DNA from: a virus
Length of the DNA: 64,000 nucleotides
Direction: 5' to 3' (one strand)
Virus record (IMG/VR): IMGVR_UViG_3300027850_000003
Coordinates: 1 to 64,000 of that record
Part shown: positions 47,545-57,483 of the stretch, one piece after another
How the letters are laid out: every line of letters begins with the position of its first letter
Position numbering within the stretch: position 1 is the first letter of the stretch
Made by a program: the position numbers and the translations under genes
Notes under the pieces: generated by a model
What the model was told of the DNA's origin: nothing
The model's input: only the letters and a program-made list of their open reading frames with translations
Databases searched by the model: none

Positions 47545-47594
47545 GCTCTAACTAAGACTTTCACTTAGTTGTAAGATATAAGAACCTATAGAGC
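47545..47594 (-). ncRNA. Mini tRNA-like element 2 (TTCTTATAT subfamily)
   Basis: GCTCTA/TAGAGC; TAGG-TTCTTATAT-CTTA; ACTAAG-TGAAAGT-CTTAGT. Confidence 0.75.
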
Positions 47595-48319
47595 GATTAG
47601 AATTAGGCGTTAAGTGTGATTAATACCAGAGATTGTAATAGAACGACGCGTCTATACCAGCCTTCTCTGGATCGAAGTCAATATCTTGCCACTCCAACGC
47701 AGCGATACTAGGATGAACGAGCCACCAAACCCCATCAATTATCTCTCCGTAGCTACAGGTGCTTTCGACATAAAATTCTTTCCAATCTTCTTGTTCGATT
47801 AAGTTCTTGGCGAAGGATATCTTCTCGGAACTTTCTTCCGATCTCAGTAAATGTAATGCTTGCTCGGTAGCAATCAATTCTCGTTCTTTACTAAATACAA
47901 AATCCATTATTTTCTCCTGCGTTTTTTTACTAGCATCGTCAGTGATAAAGTAGTAATCTTTACCAGACACCTCCTTTAGGTGTTTCAGCAATTATTAGTA
48001 CAGCGATCTACAAGCCCTTTTAATGTTCTCGCTGATAGTGAGCAATGTAGTCAAATTTAGAGGTTGTAAAGCTGGTGAGATTGTTTATCCTAGCACGTTA
48101 GAGTCGATTATTAACTCACGGGTTATCAATTTGAATTGTCGCCGTCCAGTACGGGAGGCATCACGCTTTACCCAACACATTGTACGCGATTTTTTGGTTG
48201 ATATTTTAGCGTCTGAGATGCTGTAGTTACGTCCGTTTAATAATTTGTGATAGTTCCCCTTCATCATAGTTAGTCTCCTTTGAAGTAGATAATCCCTTAA
48301 CTGAGTTGTTAAGAGGAAG

Positions 48320-48370
48320 AGTCTAGCCAAGAATCGAACTTGGTTGTTAAATTACCATTAACTCTAGACT
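48320..48370 (-). ncRNA. Mini tRNA-like element 3
   Basis: 7-bp AGTCTAG/CTAGACT; D-like arm GTTAA-TGGTAAT-TTAAC; T-arm CCAAG-TTCGATT-CTTGG; no anticodon arm. Confidence 0.8.
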
Positions 48371-49504
48371 TATGAGATAGATTAAGTAGTCATGTTTGTG
48401 CTAATTTTGCCTAACTTAAATTTTACATGAAGATAGAATCCATCATCAAAATGTCCAATGCAGAAAATATTAGACCCAAAATACATAGTGGTTTGTACTT
48501 CAGAATCGCAGTAAACTCCTAGTCTTAATTTGTCAACGCAAAAATGGAAAGAACCGTCATTTTTTACAGTGAGTTTCATTGTGACTCCTAAGTGGTAGAT
48601 AACTAGGTTAGTTACTTCCCTAGTATTTCTTATCTCAACTAATTGATGCGGGGATAACCTCTTTTCATGTATTAGATAATGGTTTATACCTTAATTCAAA
48701 CCTTTGGACAGCCTCAAATAAAGGGATGTTAAACCTGCTATCACTATTCCATCCTGCTACAACCTGATTATTTCTGATATAGATATTAAACGATTGAAAT
48801 GTATCAGGAAGCGAACCAAAATTTAAGCAAAGAGGGAGAATTTCTAATGCTTTTTTAGTAGGTTTTGTCAGACTCCCAGTATCTATCAAGCTTTTAATCA
48901 GTTTAATTCTTTCGATAGAGAAAACTTGAAATCCAGTGTCAATCAGAGCAGGAAATAATTGCGCGTGAAGTCCAGTGAGTTTTTGAGTAGACATGATAAT
49001 TCTCCTTAGTGGTAAATGAACAGAATAGTTTAACGTCATTGCGGACTAAATATTCTCGAAGCAAGGCTCTACGAGCTAAATCTCTCTTATCTCAACTAAT
49101 TGATATGGAGATAAGCCTTCCTCAGTTAGCCAGTCTCCGTTCAACTGTTTCTCTGCACAATCTAACGCAGAAGAGAGCGAGTCGAACTCCTCATCTTCCA
49201 CATAATATTTCTGCACTCCCACAAAGGAATGTTCTAAATAGACTACATATTCTCCGGCTCTCCTTAGACTTAAATTTGCATTTAAGACCAACTCAAAAAT
49301 CTTGTCTAAGTCGTCATCTTCCCAAAACTCTTGGTTAGTTGTTAACTGAAAATCAAACCAGTTACTGTTATCTTTAACTTCCACTTTGACGATATGTGGG
49401 GAGTTAAGCAAGTCTATTTCTAAACAAGCCACTATTTCTGGAATTATTTCTGAGTAGTTTAACACGTACAGAAGAAGTCATAGTGAATAAGAATTTATGA
49501 CTAA

Positions 49505-49575
49505 ACACTCTCTAGGGATTGCACCTAGTAACTGAGAAGAAATTATCCTCTAGCAGTTAGCTGATTTTAGAGTGT
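49505..49575 (-). ncRNA. Mini tRNA-like element 4
   Basis: 7-bp ACACTCT/AGAGTGT; T-arm CTAGG-TGCAATC-CCTAG. Confidence 0.7.
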
Positions 49576-49584
49576 GAATAAATA

Positions 49585-49626
49585 CTCACTAAGACTTGCA
49601 CTTAGTTGATAGCTTAGAACTAAGAG
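49585..49626 (-). ncRNA. Mini tRNA-like element 5
   Basis: CTC/GAG closing stem (short); CTAAG-TGCAAGT-CTTAG arm. Confidence 0.55.
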
Positions 49627-50684
49627 GTAAATTATTAGCTTTTTTTTGCTTTTGCTACTTTTTCATCTAGAGAATCTAAGAAACGTTCTTTTTCTTCATC
49701 TGTCATGAGATAATATAAAGTGTCTCGAATTACTTTGTTTTCTTCATTTCTTATTTTTTGTCTTTCTAAGCCTTCAACAATTCTTACTTCCTTGATTCTT
49801 TGATTAACTAGATTCTTTATTTCTTCCTCCTCATTGCAAATTGACCTCATAGTATTAGGCATATTTTCATAAGAAACTAGACTATAAGATGCCATTTTCA
49901 CTGCTAATGAACTATCTACTTCCCTCATCACTAATGTAAAAGCACTCACCAGTTCTGAATCAGTAGCCACAGAGATGTAGTTGTAAGACATTTGAGTTTT
50001 CCTTTCACTAAGTAAGTAATTAGCCAGTTTTAAGACATAGCTAAGTCATAAGAGTTAATCAATAACTTCGATAAACTCTACATTAAATTTTGTCATATTC
50101 TCAAGAAACTTCTCTTGTAAATAAGGAAGTCTTGCCTCTAACCAGATTTTAAGCTCATCAACCTCTAATTTAAGAATAGTTTCTAATGAGTCCACATCAA
50201 AACTTAAGTCTAGTAAAGTATTGCTACAGAAGTATGACCTGTATTCTTCTTTTTCCGTATCACTGTGTTGCTTAGGTTCTGAGTTCTTAAAAACTCGATA
50301 CTCATTCCGATAGCACTCATAGAAATGCATAGTATTAGCTATGTAGTGCATAGGAGTTCCATCTTGACCGCATCCATGAAAAGGTATCAATGCTTTGAGT
50401 TCAGGTTTTCTTTCAACTATTAAGTCATGAATACATCCACAAGAGTCTTCTACCCATCTCTCTTTATCGTTTTCTCTTCGATAAGTTTCCCCAGTAATAT
50501 AAAAATATGGGTTAGAGTTCCCATAGATATAGTGCATCCCAAATTCAGCTGTTCCTTTATACTGAAAATAATCATCATCTTCCCAAGTACCTAAGTCTAT
50601 TAGCTGTTTAGTTTCAATACTCTTTGTTCTTTTTGTAGTGACCATGATAATTCTCCTTAAAATACCTATAAGAGCTAGGGTAAA

Positions 50685-50748
50685 AACTAACTTAGGAGTT
50701 GCACCTAAGCTTTCCAGACATATAGCCTAAAAAGAATCTCATTTAGCT
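50685..50748 (-). ncRNA. Mini tRNA-like element 6
   Basis: AGCTAA/TTAGTT; CTTAGG-TGCAACT-CCTAAG. Confidence 0.6.
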
Positions 50749-55926: not shown

Positions 55927-55976
55927 GCTCTAATCAAGACTTTCACTTGATAGTAAGATATAAGAACCTATAGAGC
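55927..55976 (-). ncRNA. Mini tRNA-like element 8 (TTCTTATAT subfamily)
   Basis: GCTCTA/TAGAGC; TAGG-TTCTTATAT-CTTA; ATCAAG-TGAAAGT-CTTGAT. Confidence 0.75.
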
Positions 55977-56229
55977 AGTTAGACTTAGTAATTTTCCGTT
56001 TCTACGGTAATCTTGAATCCCACTACCTTTAGATACATTTTGAAGTGCGATTTCTCAACACCTTTACCTCCTACATCTACAAAATTACTCTTATAGTAGA
56101 CGTTGAACCGCCCATCATCAGTGTACATTCCCACATTCAGTGCATCAGAAAACAAGTCGATAGAACCGTTAGCAGTTACGATTAATGTCATGGTCTTAGC
56201 AGCTAGTCGGTAAAGAATTACTAGCAACA

Positions 56230-56290
56230 CTCTTTCTAGGAGTCGAACCTAGATCAAGCTAACCCGATTATTTAATCGTATAGCAAAGAG
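56230..56290 (-). ncRNA. Mini tRNA-like element 9
   Basis: CTCTTT/AAAGAG; CTAGG-TTCGACT-CCTAG; extended middle arm GCTA..CGATTA/TAATCG..TAGC. Confidence 0.7.
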
Positions 56291-56743
56291 AAGAAATTAG
56301 ATGCGGGGATAATTTTGTATATCCGTCTCGCAGAACTCTAGGTATTCTACACTATTTAGCTCCACCTGCTCGTTGTAAGCAGCGTTTGTATCCGAGATAT
56401 GCTCAGGTTGTTTAGTAACAGGTTTTACTAATTTAGCTTTGGGATTGCGTGTGCGTTGTGTCGCTAGGTTTCCCCAGCTTACTACCTCAAAGTTTGGTTC
56501 GATCCAGTTCCCCCAGTCACTTTTATTAGTAGAGCCAATTGGAAAGTGAGCCGGACTTTGACTCGCCCACAGTTTAGCTTGACCTATTGCCTTTACCTCC
56601 GACAGGAAGAAGCTAACAGTGATCCCGCCTGGATTAGGTACACTCCAGAACTCATTAAGATTGACAGAAGTGTTAATTGTGTTAGTGGTAATCATGGTAC
56701 AAGATAAGCTACATGGAATAAGAAATTTCTCATATAGCTAATT

Positions 56744-56792
56744 CCCCAAATAAGACTTTCACTTAAAAGACAGATATAAGAACTGTTAGGGC
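56744..56792 (-). ncRNA. Mini tRNA-like element 10 (TTCTTATAT subfamily)
   Basis: CCCTA/TGGG closing; ACAG-TTCTTATAT-CTGT (covariant); TAAG-TGAAAGT-CTTA. Confidence 0.7.
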
Positions 56793-56799
56793 GGTTGAG

Positions 56800-57414
56800 T
56801 TAGATGATAAAACAGAACACGTTACGGATGAACTCAACACTTTTCATTTTCTCTCCGTCAATTTTCCCGTAGTGGAATAAAGCAGAACATAACCTATCAT
56901 CAATTTCACCTACACTTCCTCTGAACGCTCCTAGTATTCGCCAAAAGCAGATACTTACTACACAATCATCATCACATTGAATGTGGATTATAGCATCTGA
57001 TATTGGGTGCAAACCTTCTGCACGGAATACCAAGTTACCTAGTGAATATTGCAAGATTTTGGCTGATGAGTCTAAGACTTGTTCCTTCAAGGATTGACTT
57101 TTGATCGTACCCGTAGCTGACAAGGTTTTTACCTCATAATCCAGTTCCCGTTGCCTGATGCTTTCTAGTGCGTTATCTGATGCTGAGAGATAATTGAAAT
57201 CTCTGTCACATATTAAGTCAGTAAAGTGATTAGAGCTGGCGCTCAGTTCATTTTTACTCGTCACTACTATCTGGTAGATACCTCCGTAATTAGCAACATA
57301 TTCAGTCGATGTTACAACGTGCCAACTCGAAAATAGCTCAGGTACGTCACCTTTAACTGTAGAAGCTACTGTAGGCTGTGTTTGAGTAGTCATGTGCTTT
57401 CTCCGATAAGTCAC
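56800..57414 (-). CDS. Hypothetical protein (paralog of 55596..55883 with C-terminal extension)
   Basis: Shared N-terminal domain; true start probably ATG at 57393. Confidence 0.6.
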   Translation of the reverse strand: MTYRRKHMTTQTQPTVASTVKGDVPELFSSWHVVTSTEYVANYGGIYQIVVTSKNELSASSNHFTDLICDRDFNYLSASDNALESIRQRELDYEVKTLSATGTIKSQSLKEQVLDSSAKILQYSLGNLVFRAEGLHPISDAIIHIQCDDDCVVSICFWRILGAFRGSVGEIDDRLCSALFHYGKIDGEKMKSVEFIRNVFCFII

Positions 57415-57432
57415 CCGGTATTAGGTAACGAT

Positions 57433-57483
57433 GCTCTAGTTAAGATTTTCACTTAACAGTTAGGATATAAGAACCTATAGAGC
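57433..57483 (-). ncRNA. Mini tRNA-like element 11 (TTCTTATAT subfamily)
   Basis: GCTCTA/TAGAGC; TAGG-TTCTTATAT-CCTA; GTTAAG-TGAAAAT-CTTAAC. Confidence 0.75.

Follow-up and report, generated by a model that had tools for sequence, protein, structure and literature searches.

Look-alikes of transfer RNA (tRNA) recruit tRNA-maturation enzymes in mascRNA-type 3'-end processing, in the C4 RNA of phages P1 and P7 and at E. coli intercistronic sites, and the tRNA-punctuation model of mitochondrial transcripts provides a further parallel. The t-elements of plant mitochondria are described as tRNA-like, with ends that coincide with the ends of messenger RNAs (mRNAs), and as being processed by ribonuclease (RNase) P and RNase Z (Forner et al. 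2007, PMC1920247). At the DNA level, the PeSL cassettes of T4-type phages are reported to carry a sigma-70-like promoter together with a terminating stem-loop (Arbiol et al. 2010, PMC2839356). The open-access literature that we searched contained no description of tRNA-like punctuation in phage operons, and the excerpted text of a large survey of viral structured-RNA candidates mentions tRNA-like ones only in general terms (PMC10690425). The present analysis concerns a set of repeats about 50 nucleotides (nt) long, the c-type elements, in IMG/VR record IMGVR_UViG_3300027850_000003, a 129,969-bp sequence of an uncultured virus (completeness estimate 42%) whose first 64 kb form the stretch analysed, hereafter the window. 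We propose that the four copies of this element act as sense-strand RNA marks within polycistronic transcripts and are cut by RNase P and RNase Z, a reading to which we assign a probability of roughly 0.45.

Genes occupy the minus strand of the window from about 5 to 58 kb, and the elements are thus read as the reverse complement of the strand presented. The four copies, at 47545, 55927, 56743 and 57433, had been picked out in an earlier inspection of the letters alone (the sequence-only reading), and all of them were found where it placed them, on the minus or gene-sense strand; the one that it began at 56744 is best redrawn as 56743-56792. Read from 5' to 3', each copy consists of a 6-base strand, a 4-bp hairpin with a 9-base loop, two or three linker bases, a 6-bp hairpin with a 7-base loop and the complement of the initial strand. 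The predicted fold is a three-way junction, with the 6-bp closing stem stacked on the 6-bp hairpin and the 4-bp hairpin (9-nt loop) at the place of a D arm. The stems quoted earlier for the first hairpin (TAGG/CTTA, TAGG/CCTA, ACAG/CTGT) and for the second (ACTAAG/CTTAGT, ATCAAG/CTTGAT, GTTAAG/CTTAAC) are correct. What had been missed is the outer closing stem, GCTCTA/TAGAGC (CCCTA/TGGGG in the copy at 56744, including one double change), along with the tRNA-like geometry of the whole and its link to gene-cassette boundaries. The two loops had been called conserved: TTCTTATAT is indeed the same in all four copies (UUCUUAUAU for the 9-base hairpin loop on the sense strand), while the second loop is TGAAAGT in three of them and TGAAAAT at 57433, as the G/A alternative of that reading had allowed. 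The motif on the T-arm side, AAGAYTTTCACTT on the plus strand, occurs four times in forward and never in reverse orientation in the 129,969-bp record, against 0 and 1 occurrences for the same motif written backwards.

The contrast between fixed loops and changing stems is strong, with 1 of 16 loop columns variable among the four copies versus 16 of 32 stem columns (Fisher p=0.0034). In an alignment of five sequences (the four copies and one ortholog), 93.8% of 80 cells are paired and double changes are found in 7 of the 16 pairs; none of 500 shuffles was as good, and registers slid along the alignment were paired at 27-51%. The concerted change of the stems that had been pointed out thus exceeds chance, and the covariation and loop conservation support the earlier notion of a structured RNA with two functional loops. 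For 11 sequences (the window's five copies and six from relatives), 93.7% of cells are paired and 10/16 pairs are doubly changed, in an alignment that was fitted to the covariance model and is hence biased toward it. Free prediction with RNAalifold on these 11 sequences returned the identical three helices, with 9/15 pairs compensated. The covariance model itself, built from the four copies and one ortholog, scores those copies at 78-91 bits, and the best match beyond a fifth, divergent copy reaches only 11.6 bits (E=2). A scan of the viral_contigs collection for the c-type loop pattern matched only the two related contigs, and a search with alignment A2 returned only two already known contigs in viral_contigs and none in genome_contigs. 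Four further loci obtained from viral_contigs with a relaxed T-arm pattern were rejected as chance matches (10-17 bits).

The geometry resembles that of the acceptor and T arms of a tRNA, for which a stack of 12 bp is the rule: the closing and T-type stems amount to 6+6 bp without a gap in copies 1, 2 and 4, and to 6 bp plus 4/6 paired positions in copy 3. The 7-base loop fits the sequence pattern of a T-loop in all copies (UGAAA followed by GU in three and by AU in one) and is closed by a G-C pair in 4/4. T-loops normally dock with a second loop. The 9-base loop is the obvious candidate for this partner, and the loop-loop elbow that the sequence-only reading had imagined is plausible as a model, possibly with the UUC of the 9-base loop pairing with the GAA of the T-loop. 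Changes in the loops are limited to one U-to-C in relative L020 and one G-to-A in copy 4, and with both loops this close to invariant no covariation bears on such a contact. In the quoted portion of a study of T-loops, the consensus is UGNRA and YGNRA in riboswitches and UUCRA in tRNA, the full 7-base form is (YGNRA)NY with UGAAA as its dominant version, and the T-loop is a common docking surface (bioRxiv 10.1101/2022.12.26.521914).

The c-type copies are one subfamily among about 12 tRNA-like elements, which include the UUCGA type. In most gaps between genes from 47 to 58 kb, a closing stem and a hairpin of 5-7 bp are stacked directly on each other, and what separates them, a hairpin or a linker, varies. 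The T-type loops of the family have 7 bases and read UUCGAYU, UGCAAYU or UGAAAGU, their first five bases always fitting U-(U/G)-N-R-A. A descriptor restricted to such loops finds 16 places on both strands of the whole record, against an average of 5.9 and at most 12 in 50 shuffled sequences. Ten of the matches in the record are on the minus strand from 47,044 to 57,939, and one of the 16 is a real tRNA-Arg; copy 3 and the element at 55110-55164 escape the descriptor owing to mismatches. A looser version admitting any TnnnAnn loop is nonspecific (70 matches versus about 63 in shuffles). The closing and T-type stems together make 12 bp in five of the ten cluster matches and 10-13 bp in the others, the individual pairs in sister elements being 7+5, 7+5, 6+5, 6+5 and 6+7 bp. 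The sisters t47044, t56247, t48338 and t57939 carry GTTCGAYTC, and under relaxed settings (ps80) ARAGORN called four sister elements among 12 calls, of which five were on the wrong strand.

The sequence-only reading had set the c-type copies apart from the UUCGA subfamily. This stands as far as the loops are concerned, which do differ, but not for the architecture, the 5' leader motif, the hairpin that follows or the location, all of which are shared. A fifth copy (49585-49626), with the loop UGCAAGU, links the c-type to the other elements and has orthologs in relatives L021, L022, G003 and G004. The c-type appears to be the most derived subfamily, bridged to the others by this copy, since members of the UUCGA type resemble tRNA T-arms and four are called by ARAGORN, whereas the c-type is never called and has no match in Rfam.

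All elements are in gene-sense orientation, in intergenic gaps and next to coding regions, and eight of the ten that have an upstream gene begin 6-11 nt past its stop codon. They share a leader motif that includes this stop codon (TAA, then NTC, then NAAC, then YG). Three of the four c-type copies had been said to begin within about 10 nt of the upstream stop codon, and the distances from stop to closing stem agree with this: 7, 7 and 8 nt at 57433, 56744 and 55927, and 25 nt at 47545. A hairpin follows all four copies after 1-4 nt (z -1.28, -1.9, -3.61 and -3.74) and follows 9/12 elements overall after 1-5 nt, with a ribosome-binding site and start codon 15-25 nt further. A gene-specific leader was rejected as an identity for these elements, as the copies precede unrelated genes save for a paralogous pair behind copies 2 and 4. 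For the reading frames at 55985-56230 and 56800-57414 the listed GTG starts extend into elements or hairpins, and ATG codons further inside are a better fit; an 81-aa open reading frame (ORF) listed with a TTG start at 48085-48330 on the minus strand overlaps with t48338 and is unlikely to be a gene.

The cluster consists of small genes of unassigned function, probably early genes. The two promoter matches upstream of it, at 58374 and 58213, are the best two within 45.5-59.5 kb, and together with the terminator-like hairpin at 51170-51201 they suggest a division into two long transcription units, the first containing copies 2-4 and the second copy 1. In the same consensus scan (45.5-59.5 kb) no promoter-like or terminator-like site overlaps the four copies, and their closing stems are followed by A or T and then TTC, TTG or TCG rather than by the U tract of an intrinsic terminator; identity as a promoter or terminator was rejected. 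A stretch about 1 kb long that lies upstream of the cluster (57869-58900, minus strand) is without convincing ORFs and holds both of these promoter matches as well as a leader of about 300 nt, at the end of which stands the degenerate tRNA-like element t57939; a non-coding RNA may be encoded here.

Gains and losses of gene cassettes end at the elements. This is shown by comparison with one long syntenic relative, L021, against which the window has an extra segment at 55599-55981 comprising leader, copy 2, hairpin, a 95-aa gene and its stop codon, with borders falling exactly past two stop codons. L021 in turn has extra segments of gene plus element whose borders fall inside T-type arms. In contigs of a second freshwater metagenome, paralogous modules are joined at an element or close to one (for instance 57924 to 56751, and 57882 to 55903). 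Copies 2 and 4, with their hairpins and the paralogous genes downstream of them, form a segmental duplication of about 1505 bp. No target-site duplications are visible around the copies. The paralogous genes concerned, at 55596-55883 and 56800-57414 on the minus strand, share the N-terminus MTTQTQ...TVASTVK, and each lies behind a c-type element and a GTTACC...GGGTGAC hairpin, the duplicates being spaced about 1505 bp apart. L021 also has two copies (598-640 and 8928-8970) of a further tRNA-like element that is missing from the window (T arm GGTAGG/CCTACC, loop UUCGAUU), one of them upstream of the gene that in the window is followed by the copy-2 cassette.

Related metagenomic contigs were gathered by pattern and protein-guided searches. 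Copy 1 has orthologs in L020, L021, L023 and L024/L008 (81-86 bits), three further related records have the bridging type only, and copies 2-4 had no orthologs in the related DNA examined; an expansion to four copies appears so far to be particular to this phage. In these related phages the elements are more conserved than the genes that flank them: orthologs of copy 1 are 90-100% identical versus 73-80% for their flanks (4 loci), and those of t47044 are 90-100% identical versus 72-82% (7 loci). Substitutions in the stems mostly preserve pairing: L021 has G.U to A-U and U-A to U.G, and L020 has G.U to A-U. A natural variant at 56747 (C>T, in contigs of both sequencing runs) likewise converts a U.G of copy 3 to U-A. 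Table 1 collects the features of the locus.

Table 1. Elements, leaders, hairpins and candidate transcription signals in the window (loops and stems of the elements are given on the sense strand)
Feature	Position	Strand	Description
c-type copy 1	47545-47594	-	6-bp closing stem, 4-bp hairpin with 9-nt loop, 6-bp T-type hairpin with UGAAAGU; 89.8 bits
c-type copy 2	55927-55976	-	91.3 bits; within the cassette missing from L021
c-type copy 3	56743-56792	-	weakest, 78.1 bits; weaker T-type stem (TTTAAG/CTTATT) with two U.U mismatches; changes in closing stem and hairpin 1 compensated
c-type copy 4	57433-57483	-	85.4 bits; loop UGAAAAU, one additional linker base
Fifth, divergent copy	49585-49626	-	3-bp closing stem, hairpin-1 loop UUCUAAG, T-type loop UGCAAGU; 29.7 bits, E 1.3e-5
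Sister element t57939	57921-57975	-	T-loop UUCGAUU, weak closing stem; in leader of first gene
Sister element t56247	56230-56290	-	T-loop UUCGACU, 6+5 bp; 100% identical in L021
Sister element g55130	55110-55164	-	T-loop UGCAAUU; one A.C in T stem, L021 ortholog fully paired
Sister element g50703	50684-50728	-	T-loop UGCAACU
Sister element g49523	49505-49575	-	T-loop UGCAAUC, 7+5 bp
Sister element t48338	48320-48370	-	7-bp closing stem, 5-bp hairpin, T arm with UUCGAUU; 7+5 bp
Sister element t47044	47027-47069	-	T-loop UUCGACU, 6+5 bp; most conserved of all
5' leader motif TAA-CTCAACC	57484-57493	-	includes stop codon; variants before copies 1-3 and two other intergenic elements
Hairpin 1 nt past copy 1	47503-47543	-	-11.6 kcal/mol, z -3.61; then ribosome-binding site and ATG at 47491
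Hairpin 3 nt past copy 2	55904-55923	-	GTTACC...GGGTGAC type (family D3), z -1.9; type also after copy 4 and t57939
9-bp hairpin 4 nt past copy 3	56707-56739	-	-12.1 kcal/mol, z -3.74
Hairpin 3 nt past copy 4	57410-57429	-	z -1.28
Two sigma-70-like promoter matches	58185-58374	-	at 58374 and 58213; perfect TTGACA, 10/12; upstream of cluster
Intrinsic-terminator-like hairpin	51170-51201	-	13 pairs + T7; only strong terminator-like site inside cluster
32-nt repeat copies (family D2)	11505-11536, 12026-12057, 41160-41191, 41834-41865, 44920-44951

A closing helix that starts with G and is stacked on a T-loop hairpin to give 12 bp is what bacterial RNase P, RNase Z and the CCA-adding enzyme measure in a pre-tRNA, and it is for this reason that cutting by RNase P and RNase Z is proposed here. 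Under this proposal, the 4-bp hairpin in the D-arm place would probably dock, through its 9-nt loop, on the T-loop, host RNase P would cut at the 5' edge of the closing stem, before its first G, and the upstream mRNA would keep a tail of 7-8 nt. RNase Z would cut after the base that follows the closing stem, so that the downstream mRNA would begin with the next hairpin, and the operon message would thereby be split into single-gene mRNAs. With its own mark, each gene could become a portable cassette, the shared sequences doubling as points of recombination. Elements with different loops occupy equivalent slots, which argues for a generic reader of shape rather than for a sequence-specific protein. 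The two genuine tRNA genes of the phage encode no CCA, so that a mimic lacking CCA is consistent with the real substrates found here. According to a review, the specificity domain of RNase P docks on the tRNA elbow (PMC4919913).

Several observations weigh against the processing proposal. The c-type departs from tRNA in its T-loop (UGAAA rather than UUCRA), in a closing stem of 6 rather than 7 bp and in lacking the bases of positions 8-9, and in place of the T-arm motif GGTTCRANYCC it has AAGTGAAAGTCTT. Rfam gave no match at gathering scores in the 64 kb, the six matches obtained at E<=10 in 45.5-59.5 kb leave the four copies untouched, and ARAGORN (default, relaxed ps80 and -mt) called 0/4 c-type copies. 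A real or armless tRNA was rejected on the ARAGORN result, and a known ribozyme or riboswitch on the Rfam result. The minimum free energies (MFE) of the copies, -6.3 to -11.4 kcal/mol, are weak (z -0.75, -0.73, +0.13 and -1.99), the MFE fold of copy 3 differs from the consensus fold (that of copy 4, at 57433, with z -1.99, is identical to it), and the antisense strand folds about equally well by energy; with thermodynamics this weak, the element could not be found from energy alone. The stems of 17 distinct element sequences contain 223 Watson-Crick, 18 G.U, 2 A.C and 4 other cells, an excess of G.U over A.C that favours the sense strand as the folded one, in a count biased by the definition of sister stems through a scan that admitted G.U but not A.C (5 vs 2 for the c-type alone). 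The ortholog in L024 has two uncompensated C.A mismatches, the operon reading is drawn from consensus scans for promoters and terminators, and the closest relatives of the family A DNA polymerase, in Nodularia phages, are only 25% identical, too distant to name the host whose enzymes would be involved. Finally, routine cutting of bacterial mRNAs by RNase P is uncommon.

Much of the same evidence would also fit a structured RNA that is left uncut, serving either as an exonuclease barrier that stabilises a neighbouring cistron, in the manner of repetitive extragenic palindromic (REP) sequences, or as a site at which a phage or host protein (a translational operator, a tRNA-modifying enzyme) engages the two invariant loops, in line with the specific protein-binding surface that the sequence-only reading had offered as its other option. 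Invariant loops on varying stems, a location between stop codon and next ribosome-binding site, covariation backing the fold and the common use of the T-loop as a docking surface all agree with it, but one sequence-specific protein is hard to reconcile with a slot that takes UUCGA, UGCAA and UGAAA types, the stems are weak as exonuclease blocks, and a Pfam search with 10 proteins of the cluster neighbourhood recognised no RNA-binding protein; we consider this explanation unlikely. The cassette borders raise a different question, whether the copies are DNA-level repeats that drive cassette shuffling as PeSL do, or small selfish repeats, the fold being a side effect or a form of single-stranded DNA. 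The cassette missing from L021, with its borders exactly past stop codons, the extra cassettes of L021 bordered inside T-type arms, the modules joined at or near elements in the second metagenome and the duplication of about 1505 bp that contains copies 2 and 4 would all be accounted for. Recombination, however, needs identity and not compensated stems, and here the stems change pairwise while the loops stay fixed; every element is gene-sense, G.U exceeds A.C by 18 to 2 on the sense strand, and neither target-site duplications nor, inside the elements, any promoter or terminator can be seen, which makes this account quite improbable.

A slightly lower probability still attaches to the idea that the released RNAs of about 50 nt are themselves the product, as tRNA look-alikes that sequester or mislead host factors such as defence nucleases, the CCA-adding enzyme or modification enzymes. 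The tRNA-like geometry, the conserved loops and the high dose to be expected from multiple copies in a cluster that has two good promoter matches ahead of it and is probably transcribed strongly speak for such a decoy. Without an anticodon arm, however, it could be no decoy for anticodon nucleases, its acceptor end has neither an encoded CCA nor known identity marks (its third pair being U-A instead of G.U), and the strictly intercistronic placement is more simply explained by processing. That the c-type is a small self-cleaving ribozyme of a kind not yet described, with an active site formed by its two invariant loops and an activity that replaces the RNase P cutting of the sisters, would suit a three-way junction, set between phage cistrons, in which the unpaired bases are invariant and the stems vary freely, yet no Rfam family, ribozymes included, matches it even at E<=10, the junction has nearly no unpaired bases, and plainly tRNA-like elements fill the same slot interchangeably; we regard this as very improbable.

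The phage itself is known from two runs only, both freshwater metagenomes, and no RNA run is among those listed for this DNA. Its record encodes a Mu-type portal, a family A DNA polymerase, an RNA ligase and an intein-bearing class II ribonucleotide reductase, the latter a 1150-aa protein (15730-19182, minus strand) split by an intein with a LAGLIDADG endonuclease domain. The element-bearing cluster (46000-58000) has a G+C content of 0.35-0.41 versus 0.28-0.33 in the rest of the window, a contrast that suggests a separate history for this region. A 115-aa protein (46637-46984, minus strand) without a Pfam match is 59-77% identical across 26 metagenomic proteins, always of about this length, and is a useful marker for the phage group. 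Searches of phage sequences found no match to 55.5-58.1 kb (blastn) or to this neighbour protein (tblastn), and a locus search of viral_contigs by means of a single protein found none. The tRNA-Met of relative L024, searched for as a lead toward the host, has no exact match in genome_contigs. In this related contig of 58.6 kb (L024 10472-10546 and L006 2-355) the tRNA-Met(CAT) gene adjoins a MerR-type serine recombinase gene near the contig end, and identical strong TTGACA...TATAGT promoters are repeated ahead of successive small genes, which hints at a temperate or integrating relative. Outside the tRNA-like cluster, the window has a second repeat family of five intergenic 32-nt copies with 72-100% identity, which may serve another class of genes as a promoter or operator.

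We also put forward, more tentatively, a wider picture that goes beyond the four copies and that we regard as rather doubtful: a group of freshwater phages may build its accessory region from portable cassettes, each with a miniature tRNA mimic (stop-codon leader, T-loop three-way junction and 5' hairpin) that would be cut by RNase P and RNase Z so that new genes are expressed independently. The marks would serve as crossover points as well, and the c-type would combine a retained tRNA shape with a T-loop of UGAAA sequence and a partner loop re-matched to it. Should tRNA-maturation enzymes indeed cut the elements, punctuation in the style of mitochondria would occur in phage operons too, in a stripped-down 50-nt form, and it would be tied to the gain and loss of small phage genes. 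This would add a post-transcriptional layer to early phage expression, explain part of the structured intergenic repeats of metagenomic phages and offer very small natural processing tags for synthetic operons. The c-type would further show how far the loops of a tRNA mimic can drift while its shape is kept, a drift through which tRNA finders miss it.

The principle of such punctuation is already known from organelles; new are the phage setting, the organisation as a family, the link to cassettes and the non-tRNA T-loop. The mascRNA, C4 RNA and E. coli cases are single sites, unlike the present locus, where a whole family, varying by subfamily, would punctuate an operon. As in FMN (flavin mononucleotide) and cobalamin riboswitches and in tRNA, the T-loop has 7 bases of which the first five are UGNRA, and UGAAAGU itself appears in the FMN consensus as quoted (bioRxiv 10.1101/2022.12.26.521914); these elements differ from the riboswitches in having no riboswitch context, ligand-binding core or Rfam match. 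PeSL, as far as the cited account goes, are likewise short repeats that flank small unassigned genes in a variable region, with insertions, deletions and replacements ending at the motifs (PMC2839356). The elements described here differ from them in having no promoter or terminator and in showing RNA-type covariation and a T-loop. The closest likeness seems to be with the t-elements of plant mitochondria, non-decoding tRNA-like folds on the coding strand by mRNA ends, with a T-type arm on an acceptor-like stem (PMC1920247), by analogy with which a role as cut marks is proposed for the phage elements. Those t-elements, in the portion of that work cited, were found through GGTTCRANYCC (PMC1920247), whereas the c-type has UGAAAGU and the motif is confined to its sister elements. 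The phage elements, seen here in DNA alone, are set apart further by their bacterial operon, their length of about 50 nt, their presence at nearly every gene junction and their tie to the borders of gene cassettes.

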